Virus record (IMG/VR): IMGVR_UViG_2859810971_000004
Source: a virus
Taxonomy: Duplodnaviria > Heunggongvirae > Uroviricota > Caudoviricetes
Length of the DNA stretch: 24,933 bases
Reading direction: 5' to 3' (one strand)
Shown here: positions 9,001 through 12,000 of the stretch, one piece after another
Layout of the letters: every line of letters begins with the position of its first letter
Position numbering within the stretch: the stretch's first letter is position 1
Program-made: the position numbers

Positions 9001-12000
9001 TTACCACACCTGATTTAAGATGCAGCTCGCACCGTGGGACGTTTCCGGGAGCCCCCTCAGGGCGCTCTGAGGTGTACTGGCAATTGAGGTGTACTGGCAA
9101 TAGCGGACACTACCATTTGTTCTTTTTTTAAGCAGTCATCTGATGATATTTTTCCCTGAAGGCTGCCGGGGAGATATTCCCCAGACGAGAGTGACGACGC
9201 TGACGATTGTAGAAAATCTCAATGTATTCCCGTATTACTGAGATGGCTTCATCCCGGTTATTAAAACGATAGTGGCTCAGGCTCTCATTTTTCAGCGTTC
9301 CCCAGAAGCTTTCCATCGGAGCGTTGTCGTAACAGTTACCTTTACGCGACATTGATGTTTTCAGACCAAACTGCTCCTGTATGACCCGGTAATCGTATGC
9401 GCAGTACTGTGAACCTCGATCAGAGTGGTGGATTAGCCCGGCAGGTGGGCGCTGGCTCCTGAGCGCCATAAACAGGGCTTTACCTGTCAGCTCTTTTGTC
9501 ATGCGCTCTCCCATGGCGTAGCCGACAATTTCGCACGTATAAACATCTTTGATGCCAGCGAGGTACAACCATCCCTCCTGTGTGGCAACATACGTCAGGT
9601 CCGCCACCCAGACCTGATTTGGTGCTGTAGGAGCGAACGTCTGGTTCAGCAGATTTGGCGCAACTGGCAGATTGTGGTTCGGGTTCGTAGTCGCTCTGAA
9701 CTTGCGTTTCTGCTTACAGCGTAGCCTCAGCTCCTTACGAAGACGTGCCAGTCGGTCACGACCAACGATGATGCCATTCTCTGCCAGCTCCGTCTGGAGC
9801 CGCCGGGTTCCATATGTTTCGCGAGTGCGGATATGTGCCACCTTAATCTCCGGTTTTAGCCGCTCATCACTTTGTTTTCTGTCTGAGGGTTCATGCTGTA
9901 CCCAGTTGTAATAACCGCTCCTGGATACACCAAATACCTGACACATCGCTTCAATGGGAAATTGTTGTCGCCATTGTTCGATTAACGCGTATTTTTCAGC
10001 GACTCCTGTGCAAAATACGCTGTTGCTTTTTTTAATATATCTCGCTCAAGGCGAGCTTCATTTAACGCCTTACGCAGTTGCAGAATTTCAGATTCCAGTT
10101 CAGCCACCGTGCGGGAACCAGGAGTACCGAGCCCTTTTCTGGCGGCGGTAACCCATTGTCCTAAAGTGCCTTCAGGAAGGGATAATCGGGAAGCGCCTTC
10201 ACTGATCGAAAGTTGATTTTCAAGAACCGTTCTGACAGCTTCGGCTTTGAACTCTTTAGAGTAACGTTGGGTTTTTCTGCTCATTATTAGCTCCTTCTGA
10301 TGCCATTCTATTTCAGGAAGGAGTGTCCATTAAACTCAGGCTACCTCAGTTTATCTTCAAATCTTAAACGCAGGGCATCAGGCAAATAAGAACGGAAGCA
10401 GGGAATATCTTTTGTTGTCTGGGAATTCATCGTTCGTGTCCATCAATATAGATGGGCGCGATTGTTGCCAGACAGGACAATTTTCACAAGACGTCGCTGA
10501 TGGGGCGCTTACTGTTGTTCTGAGGTGAGCATATCACCTCTGTTCAGGTGGCCAAATTCAGTGTGCCACTTCAAATTAAGCATTGCCAGAATGATTACAT
10601 ACCAGCGTTAATGGCTAACCAACGAAGCCAAGGTTGGTAATTAAGGAGTTCTCCACGGGTGAGGTGGAGTGCGTGCGCCGGACACGGGTGAGTATCCGGC
10701 ATGTTCTTTAAAAATCTGAATACCTTGACTCAAAAATCATTATTGAAATTGTAGTCCATGAGATACTCATTTTTACAGGAGGGGCATTGAGTTTTCGTAT
10801 ATTTATCGCCTTCCTCGATAGGGAAAGGTTGCAATATAGATATTGCTCTCTTCGCAAAACATTCTGGACAAAAATACATGGTAATCTTGCCAGAGCTAGT
10901 ATTGCACTGTCTGGCATACACAATCGTTCCAGTAATCAATTAGCGAGGTTCGCAGTCTTCACTTTGGAACTTAAACTTTTCTATCTCCGTGAGTTTTGCT
11001 TTGAGCGCAGCCTCATTGCTTTTAGAGATTGTCAGCTCATCAATGAGAGACAAATATTCAAGCTGAATGCTTGACAACTTAGAGTTTATTTCAGACACAG
11101 CGCGATCAACCTCAGCCTGAGTTTTTGCTTCATTGAATAATTTTAACATTGATGCAGTCTCTTTGAGAGCTGACATCGCTAATACATCACTTGCTCACTC
11201 TTCTTATTGTTGGGGTATTCAGATTATACAAATTTCTTGTTGTTGGGGAATAACAGGAACCACCTCGCCTGACGTAGTTAAAAGCAGGCACACAACGCGA
11301 AATGACGCGGCGGTAAGTATGGCGGAGTTATTCCTTCCCCGTTGAGGACACCGGGTTGTCAGGTTGACCATACGCTTAAGTGACAACCACGCCACAACAC
11401 TCCATGTTGATTGGTACCTTTGGCGGCATCAGTTTCATTGCTGGCTGATGTCCGCCCTTTTTAAAGTGAATTTTGTGATGCGGTGAATGCGGCTGAGCGC
11501 ACGCGGAACAGTTAAAAAGCGATTAGTTCCCACGTATCGGGTGGTTATGGGTTTCCCTGTATCCGGCGTTAATTGTTAACTGGTTAACGTCACCTGGAGG
11601 CACCAGGCACCGCATCAACAAAGTTCACTTCGGTGATGAAAGGTAAGAGAAAATGTTGAATGTAGCTATTGAAAACCAGAACGGGTGGAATTATAGTGCA
11701 TCTGCACCTCATAAAACGGGGGCCGGGCGTGGAAACCCGAACGTTACTCGAGCGCATAGCCGCGCTGAAGCGGTTTTTTTATGCGTAATGCACAGCTCCA
11801 TTCAAATTATGGTGGGATGTGCAGGGCAGTCGCAAGACTGGCCGGGTTCTCGAGTGACCGGTATTTCCACCCCTGTACGTCTCACCACCCTTATGGTCGT
11901 GGAAAACCTCGGTGGTGAGTTAATTAACTTATCACTCGAGGATGCCATCATGGCTACTATCCCTGCCCTTTCTCACCCTGACGTAACCATCGAAAACGGT

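Follow-up and report, generated by a model that had tools for sequence, protein, structure and literature searches.

Rip1 has been described as a single-protein anti-phage defence (Patel et al., Nature 651:1060, 2026, as reported in the review PMC13434031) in which, by the review's account, small terminase or portal rings of the phage template a membrane-perforating ring of Rip1 (PMC13434031). The mechanism as given here (PMC13434031, PMC13601566, PMC12908700) is taken from a review, a conference report and a PDB entry title; it derives from the HK446 and Pseudomonas proteins and comprises assembly of a 12-mer around the phage ring, membrane permeabilisation and a defence phenotype. The original Pseudomonas gene is placed by the review between the small and large terminase genes (PMC13434031), and PDB entry 9oox is, according to its title, HK446 Rip1 complexed with the T6 small terminase.

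HK446 Rip1 (gp37, YP_007111990; 164 aa) is a lone gene of a lambdoid prophage that is antisense to the early-left operon, flanked by N and the cIII/kil genes, and matches the protein family phrog_1244 (E = 2e-53). The same family is matched by HK620 hkaP (NP_112049, also in HK629 and HK630; E = 8e-51) and by D3112 orf25 (NP_938232; E = 6e-58), which has relatives in Mu-like Casadabanvirus prophages of Pseudomonas. The hkaP gene of the P22-like phage HK620 is placed likewise, antisense within the pL operon and where P22 has sieB, and its product has long been labelled hypothetical or a "putative superinfection exclusion" protein; the literature on hkaP that was found consisted of a paper in which the adjoining intergenic regions of HK620 served as sites for insertions and which is silent on function. 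D3112 orf25 is GC-rich, encodes 178 aa and is an antisense single gene in the late/packaging region instead of the early-left operon, where it lies between orf24 (annotated as a DNA binding protein, next to the large terminase gene) and the large terminase gene, a location that fits the published Pseudomonas Rip1 site. In each of three unrelated phage groups the gene is antisense to the surrounding operon.

The locus that we compared with these systems lies in a window of 24,933 nucleotides (the whole stretch of viral DNA analysed; Caudoviricetes, IMG/VR record IMGVR_UViG_2859810971_000004), in which a first-pass annotation had singled out two small ORFs in an AT-rich islet. Both ORFs are on the minus strand: one of 78 codons plus TAA at 10940-11176 and one of 69 codons, starting with TTG and ending with TGA, at 10730-10939. 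They share one frame across the TAA at 10940-10942, as had been described, and the second ORF does contain two CxxC pairs (CPEC and CPSC). That annotation had left a choice between a broken protein of roughly 148 aa and two tiny genes, and the intact alleles decide for the former, since the 148- and 155-aa alleles carry CAA at the position of the stop codon. Co-linear intact CDSs exist in E. coli (WP_490185909, 148 aa; WP_052327206 and WP_077889334, 155 aa), and CAA (Gln) stands at the stop position in the alleles of E. coli RMDEC465, VL40 and WGI31CT; apart from the nonsense change, the window copy and the VL40 allele are separated by one synonymous change in 447 nt. These alignments show that a CAA-to-TAA change at codon 79 (Q79*) has divided one protein of 148-155 aa into an N-terminal half, the 78-aa ORF, and a C-terminal half, the 69-codon ORF; the stop is a single C-to-T nonsense mutation, found widely in Shigella flexneri. 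The resulting gene (10730-11176, minus strand) begins with the ATG of MSALKE, ends with the TGA at 10730-10732 and has 148 codons when the TAA is counted as Gln.

No known family had been assigned to either ORF, a statement that is now outdated, because the intact protein belongs to the family of phrog_1244 (E = 2e-35) and Rip1, for which a structure has been solved (9oox). The 78-aa ORF matches positions 9-82 of the phrog_1244 profile (E = 3.4e-13) and the 69-codon ORF positions 90-146 (E = 1.1e-14); these matches fall on consecutive halves of the profile. A homologue search with the window-type allele as query, which was word-indexed, returned 2 proteins only, and the family of 43 sequences could be built only after a further search that started from the divergent FORC_082 allele. 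The profile of these homologues matched Rip1 in 9oox (chain L) over residues 16-160 of 164 (E = 2.7e-18), hhalign gave a probability of 98.6% (E = 9e-16, 152 columns), and BLASTP against HK446 Rip1 aligned 138 aa at 24% identity with one gap; by tblastn, hkaP (25% identity, E = 2e-10) and D3112 orf25 (28.5% identity, E = 8e-5) were also found. Four cysteines (C110, C113, C138 and C141) are invariant among the 43 homologues, the CPEC and CPSC motifs of the window align with LCAQC and RCHRC of HK446 Rip1, and the C-terminal domain that bears the two pairs is a predicted zinc ribbon. The loop between the pairs is hypervariable, with a mean pairwise identity of 19% vs 75% for the first helix, and it may set which phage rings are recognised. 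When 1.84 billion proteins were searched, 2622 family representatives were found at E <= 1e-3; nearly all of the 150 representatives listed are single chains of about 145-180 aa that align over their whole length, together with some short partial entries.

The predicted structure agrees with this assignment. An AlphaFold2 model was made from an intact allele that shares 88% identity with that of E. coli VL40, rather than from the broken window copy, and has a pLDDT of 86, with helices at residues 4-22 and 27-79. The earlier half-by-half description is upheld in so far as this model of an intact allele is helical in its N-terminal half and has a zinc ribbon at the C-terminus; its N-terminal helices are followed by a compact, beta-rich C-terminal domain, as in the solved 9oox. 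Foldseek against the PDB gave significant matches to chains L and M of 9oox only (E = 2e-7 and 4e-7, probability 1.0; TM 0.67/0.80, rmsd 3.0, 123 columns), and the next-best match had an E value of 0.3. Mapped onto Rip1, the N-terminal fragment comprises helix 1 plus the greater part of the long helix, which form the pore-forming half, and the C-terminal fragment is the beta-rich zinc-ribbon domain, which contacts the phage ring. No hydrophobic 18-mer was found (maximum mean hydrophobicity, 0.32), and the maximum hydrophobic moment of 0.44 indicates moderate amphipathicity, similar to that of HK446 Rip1 (0.42); these values agree with a pore-forming N-terminus that has no constitutive transmembrane segment but are not diagnostic of it. 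In aligned sequence and predicted fold, the protein is thus shown to be homologous to HK446 Rip1 over its full length. The likeness to HK446 Rip1 includes co-linear full-length homology, the order of N-terminal helices and a beta-rich domain with two CxxC pairs, and a similar size (148-155 aa for the alleles of the window family vs 164 aa); the differences are an identity of about 24%, the site (the ydfC-DicF interval of a Qin/Rac-type prophage vs next to N) and, for the window copy, an internal nonsense codon and the loss of the usual 5' end. HK620 hkaP differs further from the window copy in being intact and in its flanking genes. The single uninterrupted chain of about 145-180 aa, present in the intact alleles elsewhere, is absent from the window copy, which is interrupted at codon 79 by the TAA and has lost 10 bp at its 5' end; because of these two lesions, the window locus is a pseudogene of the Rip1 family by descent and does not have the status of a functional member.

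The defence function of the enterobacterial subgroup found between ydfC and dicF is transferred by homology from HK446 Rip1, to which it is about 24% identical, and a homologue with this little identity might have a different job, such as superinfection exclusion or that of a regulatory zinc finger of the DksA/TraR type, in which case the intact alleles would be no pore-forming defence. The position-based annotation of hkaP as a "putative superinfection exclusion protein" speaks for such a role, as do the size and cysteine spacing of the family protein, which we take to be loosely reminiscent of DksA. Scans of the intact protein against Pfam, NCBIfam and PADLOC, however, gave sub-threshold zinc-ribbon noise or nothing, and no match to DksA/TraR, SieB or another family; the DksA/TraR C4 zinc finger was rejected because it was not matched in Pfam or NCBIfam even at E <= 10 and was not among the Foldseek matches, and SieB-type exclusion because Pfam SieB was not matched. 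In PADLOC-DB v2.0.0 (2023), a release older than Rip1, 0 families matched. A JGI label, "predicted nuclease with TOPRIM domain", attached to P0003 and P0011, appears unfounded, with neither a Pfam TOPRIM match nor a match to such a fold. Fold searching returned Rip1 alone, the homology extends co-linearly over the full length, the genomic logic is shared, and it is HK446 Rip1, an E. coli lambdoid-phage protein in a like position, that is complexed with the T6 small terminase, all of which make a different function for the ydfC|dicF subgroup unlikely.

Granted a Rip1-family gene, the two fragments could both be made, the 69-aa one through termination-reinitiation at the TTG, and act jointly or separately as a split Rip1. 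The TTG does follow directly after the stop codon, the C-terminal part is, stop aside, unchanged from the intact allele, and the truncated 78-aa product occurs on 515 contigs named Shigella. Against this, there is no Shine-Dalgarno sequence before the TTG; the representatives listed are, save for some short partial entries, end-to-end single chains; and the one synonymous difference from the intact allele points to a recent mutation and not to a maintained split. The TAA is present in 8 of 8 Shigella loci examined, and in 3 of the 8 an IS3-family end is joined after base 294 (codon 98 of the gene), leaving nothing of the gene beyond that codon; because these loci have lost it, the C-terminal part is dispensable. 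Shigella genomes are, moreover, known for accumulating pseudogenes. A functional split protein is accordingly very unlikely, and an otherwise undamaged nonsense allele that is widespread in Shigella is what is expected of a recent clonal mutation. A separate, residual role of the 78-aa helical fragment, for which S. flexneri would have retained it, is less likely than the operator and self-immunity proposal set out below.

The pseudogene is one base away from the intact allele, so that readthrough of the stop could still yield some full-length, functional Rip1. The stop is, however, TAA followed by T, and UAAU is reportedly the context in which E. coli terminates most efficiently; the site is also without a known recoding signal, and normal initiation is weakened too by the 10-bp 5' deletion, which together render readthrough extremely unlikely. 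Overlapping alternative-frame ORFs, noted in the first-pass annotation, are present, and in all homologues examined the antisense frame, aligned codon by codon, runs open for 93-179 codons. That the real gene is the plus-strand ORF (95 aa, 10787-11074), or that the region is non-coding, nevertheless has a negligible probability, since the minus-strand Rip1 frame is the one frame without interruption between start and stop codon in each of these homologues; it also yields the 43-sequence alignment with invariant CxxC pairs, a confident fold and the PDB match, and long antisense open frames are a known codon-usage by-product in helical proteins rich in Glu, Lys and Leu. The best explanation overall is an unremarkable pseudogene in decay that belongs to a known family.

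The pseudogene and its own upstream region make up an AT-rich cassette, or moron, of 596 bp (10700-11295) between the 3' end of ydfC and a DicF-like sRNA. The islet is indeed richer in AT than its surroundings (GC content 37.8% for 10703-11250 vs 49.3% for the whole window). The cassette is absent from the Qin prophage of K-12, which aligns with window positions 10575-10699 and 11296-11627 and in which 133 bp of unrelated sequence stand where the window has 10700-11295. IS600 (9085-10348) and a Rha-family gene, said to bracket the islet, are both present, but neither directly adjoins it: an end piece of another IS3-family element (226 bp, 10349-10574) and, at 10575-10699, the final 37 bp of ydfC along with two hairpins separate it from IS600, and the DicF-like sRNA, an STnc100-like stretch, isrK and C4 lie between it and the Rha ORF. 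The host element is a Qin/Rac-like lambdoid prophage, in whose early-left operon the gene stands alone, antisense, convergent with ydfC and upstream of the DicF-like sRNA and the Rha/isrK/C4 module. Of 5426 complete E. coli genomes, about 3100 have the flanks of this ydfC|dicF site, and what lies between the flanks varies; the FORC_082 allele was found in 69 E. coli genomes and the window-type allele in 4. FORC_082 (WP_001546009, 151 aa; E. coli ydfC|dicF-dicB) has the same site, strand, length and family as the window gene, and alleles of its type have an upstream region of about 130 nt that is near-identical to that of the window, including repeats and -10 hexamer, while their proteins are divergent (about 40% amino-acid identity to the window type). 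The islet is thus very probably a prophage moron of about 600 bp that carried one Rip1-family gene, now a pseudogene in this Shigella flexneri-type sequence.

Upstream of the gene, alignment with the VL40 and WGI31CT alleles revealed an altered 5' end (11177-11190, minus strand), in which a 10-bp deletion (junction 11183/11184) takes out the usual start of the family (MFDLSLAM-) and leaves a mini-ORF of 2 codons (ATG TAT TAG) before the ATG of MSALKE; the deletion is common to E. coli RMDEC465 and all 8 of the Shigella loci examined. A perfect -10 hexamer, TATAAT (11223-11228, minus strand), marks a candidate promoter with a weak -35, ATTCCC, at 17 bp. Six loci with coding regions as far apart as about 40% amino-acid identity all have the hexamer unchanged. 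A consensus promoter scan found no promoter for the rip1-family gene, missing this hexamer because the -35 is poor, and the candidate was recognised by reading the alignment and sequence. The two direct repeats of TTGTTGGGG reported at 11207-11215 and 11240-11248, 33 bp apart, are real and occur nowhere else in the window, but each is part of a longer repeat of 18 nt rather than 9, identical at 16 of 18 positions (11201-11218 and 11234-11251), and the 15-mer CCCCAACAAYAAGAA has 2 matches vs 0.11 expected by chance. On the gene strand, the proximal copy (CCCCAACAATAAGAA, 11201-11218) covers the predicted transcription start and early 5' UTR, and the distal copy (CCCCAACAACAAGAA, 11234-11251), 33 bp away, covers the -35 region. 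This promoter region with its 18-nt repeats is a conserved property of the window subgroup: the repeats are kept in all Qin-type loci and are absent from the HK446, HK620 and D3112 loci.

By analogy with published Rip1 work, the intact protein would be produced in the lysogen and be harmless alone (PMC13434031). In the scheme given in the review, a superinfecting phage would form its small terminase or portal ring, around which the C-terminal zinc-ribbon domains would dock; the amphipathic N-terminal helices of the Rip1 ring would then enter the inner membrane, and the pore would kill the cell ahead of completed phage maturation (PMC13434031). In the window copy the stop would part the pore half from the sensor half, and with the two uncoupled the defence would be lost. 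We further infer that, upon induction of its own prophage, early-operon transcription may silence the antisense rip1 and so prevent self-triggering. The 18-nt repeats, which bracket the -10 three helical turns apart and are unchanged across alleles whose proteins are down to about 40% identity, could be a candidate operator for a prophage or host factor that, with the antisense placement, would switch rip1 off on induction of the resident prophage and so constitute a dedicated self-immunity circuit, a proposal that we regard as doubtful. If it is true, the terminase and portal rings of the prophage itself would leave rip1 untriggered.

With Rip1 published, these results will not surprise a specialist. 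The family is still a "hypothetical protein" in every annotation seen, and a concrete assignment can now replace that label at a fixed ydfC|dicF site of Qin/Rac-type prophages. To Rip1 biology the locus adds the antisense placement, a conserved promoter cassette with direct repeats and the hypervariable CxxC loop, and the inactivated copy of a putative defence in the Shigella flexneri lineage represents a further case of Shigella gene decay.

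A 78-codon ORF occupies 11176 to 10940 of the minus strand and stops at a TAA (10940-10942), and a 69-codon ORF in the same frame opens at TTG 10939-10937, the codon directly after that stop, and ends at TGA 10732-10730. Both CxxC pairs, CPEC and CPSC, lie in the 69-codon ORF, and GC content was 37.8% over 10703-11250 versus 49.3% window-wide. The first-pass annotation had described this arrangement in the same terms (two in-frame ORFs across a single TAA, two CxxC pairs, an AT-rich islet) and had offered either one broken protein or two tiny genes as its explanation. In a megablast search of complete E. 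coli genomes, the entire islet was found in only four. The equivalent stretch is annotated as a single hypothetical protein of 148 or 155 aa in E. coli strains RMDEC465, VL40 and WGI31CT, whose translations have CAA (Gln) at the position of the window TAA. From the MSALKE ATG, where the 78-codon ORF starts, to the final stop (447 nt), only two differences separate the window from VL40: a synonymous change and the C-to-T nonsense change. In addition, the two ORFs matched consecutive, non-overlapping parts of a single profile, phrog_1244 (positions 9-82, E=3.4e-13, for the 78-aa ORF; positions 90-146, E=1.1e-14, for the 69-aa ORF). Given the CAA of the intact alleles, the near-identity to VL40 and the consecutive profile matches, the sequences establish the first of the two proposed explanations: the ORFs are one gene, evidently interrupted by a nonsense mutation of recent date. 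The 5' end is damaged as well: a 10-bp deletion, also present in RMDEC465, has removed the usual start of the family (MFDLSLAM- or MIAEFSAAM-), and a mini-ORF of two codons now precedes the MSALKE ATG.

The first-pass annotation could place neither ORF in a known family, and scans of the intact protein against Pfam, NCBIfam and PADLOC returned no significant match; PHROGs gave a full-length match to phrog_1244 (function unknown; E=2e-35). A family can nevertheless be assigned. The allele of E. coli FORC_082, a divergent form (about 40% identical) at the same site, retrieved as query a family of 84 clusters across Enterobacteriaceae, and an exhaustive profile search yielded 2622 cluster representatives at E<=1e-3, with 807 at E<=1e-10. 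Profile A1, built from 43 sequences, matched one solved structure, chain L of PDB 9oox, 'ring interacting pore 1 (Rip1)' (E=2.7e-18, residues 16-160 of 164), an entry titled 'Escherichia phage HK446 Rip1 in complex with the Enterobacteria phage T6 small terminase'. Comparison with HK446 gp37, the Rip1 of that entry, by hhalign gave a probability of 98.6% (E=9e-16, 152 columns), and the repaired window protein aligned to gp37 in BLASTP over 138 residues (24% identity, one gap), with both CxxC pairs in register. For the intact relative P0001, AlphaFold2 predicted (pLDDT 86) helices at residues 4-22 and 27-79 and, after them, a beta-rich domain (83-149); in a Foldseek search of the PDB the model's only significant matches were 9oox_L and 9oox_M (E=2e-7 and 4e-7, probability 1.0; TM 0.67/0.80, rmsd 3.0 over 123 columns), the next-best match having E=0.3. 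phrog_1244 itself includes HK446 gp37, HK620 hkaP and D3112 orf25. What the Shigella prophage remnant carries here is thus a pseudogene from the Rip1 family of anti-phage pore proteins, a known family to which the window copy adds one broken member. A different function despite the homology to Rip1 has no positive support and is improbable.

There is still less to be said for a split system in which the 78-aa and 69-aa products are both functional: no Shine-Dalgarno sequence precedes the TTG, the C-terminal part has been lost in some Shigella strains, and the homologues are single chains, almost all of the 150 representatives listed being 145-180 aa long and matching end to end. Readthrough to a full-length product is slightly more doubtful again, as the stop is a TAA followed by T, a context in which readthrough is unlikely. 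The overlapping ORFs mentioned in the first-pass annotation do exist, but the idea that a 95-aa plus-strand ORF is the real gene, or that the region is non-coding, carries almost no weight, since only the Rip1 frame is complete in every homologue examined and the plus-strand ORF is explained as a by-product of codon usage by the codon-aligned antisense frame being stop-free for 93-179 codons in all of them (the window and fetched loci L002, L003, L005 and L014-L016).

As outlined in PMC13434031, which summarises Patel et al. (Nature 651:1060, 2026), Rip1 is encoded by prophages and consists of one protein that has no toxicity by itself; its relatives are common across Proteobacteria, mostly in prophages. 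According to the same outline, escaper mutations map to the portal in phages of Pseudomonas and to the small terminase in those of E. coli; cryo-EM shows a 12-mer Rip1 ring around an 11-mer small-terminase ring, the N-terminal part being amphipathic helices and the C-terminal half contacting the terminase; and the complex forms a pore, causing dye to leak from liposomes and cells to be perforated. PMC13601566 and PMC12908700 outline Rip1 likewise. Because codon 79 falls where the long helix ends, the stop would part the half that forms the pore from the half that binds the ring, and we infer that the window copy could not work as a defence.

Database records place exactly this 78-aa product on 515 contigs, under the names Shigella flexneri or 'MULTISPECIES Shigella', and the TAA and the 10-bp deletion were both present in all eight Shigella loci fetched. 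In three of these (L009, L010 and L012) the gene match ends after base 294 (codon 98), where it is joined, at about 6295, to the end of an IS3-family element. The same IS end adjoins the ydfC remnant in the window (10530-10574), which suggests that the codon-98 junction may have arisen by IS-adjacent deletion. The 226-bp window fragment of this element (10349-10574; end sequence TGAAGTGGCACACTGAATTTGGCC...), which IS600 has cut, abuts the ydfC remnant. Intact 155/156-aa alleles occur in E. coli, S. sonnei and Salmonella; the distribution is that of a decaying pseudogene. Decay is not confined to Shigella, since other E. coli (O103:H2 12009, L004 at 4108-4452, and hits H81-H85) have N-terminally truncated or frameshifted FORC_082-type alleles, with a CDS of 114 aa or a match to only 57% of the gene.

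The window consists of IS-riddled lambdoid prophage remnants of Shigella type. Five 1264-bp IS600 copies (490-1753, 5406-6669, 9085-10348, 13833-15095 and 23398-24660; 99.4-99.6% mutual identity) make up about a quarter of it, and it carries an ipaH-type effector gene (2942-4657, plus strand; 571 aa, LRR_TTSS and NEL E3 ligase domains) with a CssrB sRNA just upstream (2631-2813, minus strand), and a hok/sok-type sok RNA at 18335-18509. K-12 Qin aligned to 10575-10699 (ydfC 3' end and two hairpins) and 11296-11627 (DicF region) and 10700-11295 is replaced there by 133 unrelated bp; the gene, together with about 120 nt upstream, therefore makes up a separate AT-rich cassette of 596 bp (moron). 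Intact prophages carry, in this order, a cI-like repressor, ydfA, ydfB, ydfC, the rip1-like gene on the opposite strand, and DicF/dicB or Rha. Between the ydfC and rip1 stops, two adjacent hairpins (10650-10700, plus strand) share the 10-mer CACGGGTGAG (10654-10663 and 10683-10692), are conserved in K-12 Qin and many phages, and could be a bidirectional terminator of these convergent genes. Just past the cassette, placed as DicF is in K-12 Qin, lies a plus-strand DicF-like sRNA (11409-11457; full-length Rfam DicF match, 38.8 bits against a cut-off of 48, E=1.4e-6) with a terminator-like hairpin (11425-11452) followed by a T run, and then a below-cut-off STnc100-like stretch (11469-11622, plus strand). 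The 210-aa 'Rha' ORF (11653-12285), whose residues 14-109 match Pfam Phage_ASH, overlaps in its 5' part the plus-strand RNA genes isrK (11704-11780) and C4 antisense RNA (11805-11892), so that the N-terminal third of this call may not be coding. An inverted isrK/C4/c4-a1b1 module (15189-15390 and 15409-16083, minus strand) adjoins a DUF1133 Q-like antiterminator gene, and the window therefore holds two copies of this regulatory RNA module.

Upstream of rip1 (gene strand ...TTCCCCAACAACAAGAAATTTGTATAATCTGAATACCCCAACAATAAGAAGAGTGAGCAAGTGATG...), the direct repeats TTGTTGGGG reported earlier occurred only twice in the window, at 11207-11215 and 11240-11248, within a longer 18-nt repeat (16/18 identical; 11201-11218 and 11234-11251); the 15-mer CCCCAACAAYAAGAA had 2 matches versus 0.11 expected by chance. 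A perfect TATAAT (11228-11223, gene strand) is accompanied by a poor -35; the two 18-nt repeats cover, respectively, the -35 region and the predicted start site with the early 5' UTR. All Qin-type loci carried the repeats; the HK446, HK620 and D3112 loci lacked them. About 130 nt upstream were almost invariant in six loci despite divergence of their coding sequences to about 40% protein identity, and this conservation belongs to the cassette, not to the DicF precursor, because the stretch is missing from K-12 Qin. A conserved hairpin (AACCAC, 10 nt, GTGGTT in other loci) occupies the far end of the upstream region (11258-11279), with one stem mismatch (GTAGTT) in the window copy.

Mean pairwise identity within the family was 75% in the first helix, 63% in the long helix and 60% in the first part of the beta domain, but only 19%, with insertions and deletions, between the two CxxC pairs, a pattern that would fit a conserved effector with a fast-evolving recognition surface. 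The antisense placement also recurs: HK446 gp37 is convergent with N within the pL operon, following the same logic as the window locus, HK620 hkaP is likewise antisense in the pL operon, and D3112 orf25 lies antisense between orf24 and the large terminase. With the early operon repressed in the lysogen, the gene would presumably be expressed, and upon induction early transcription across it would silence it, sparing the prophage's own assembly.
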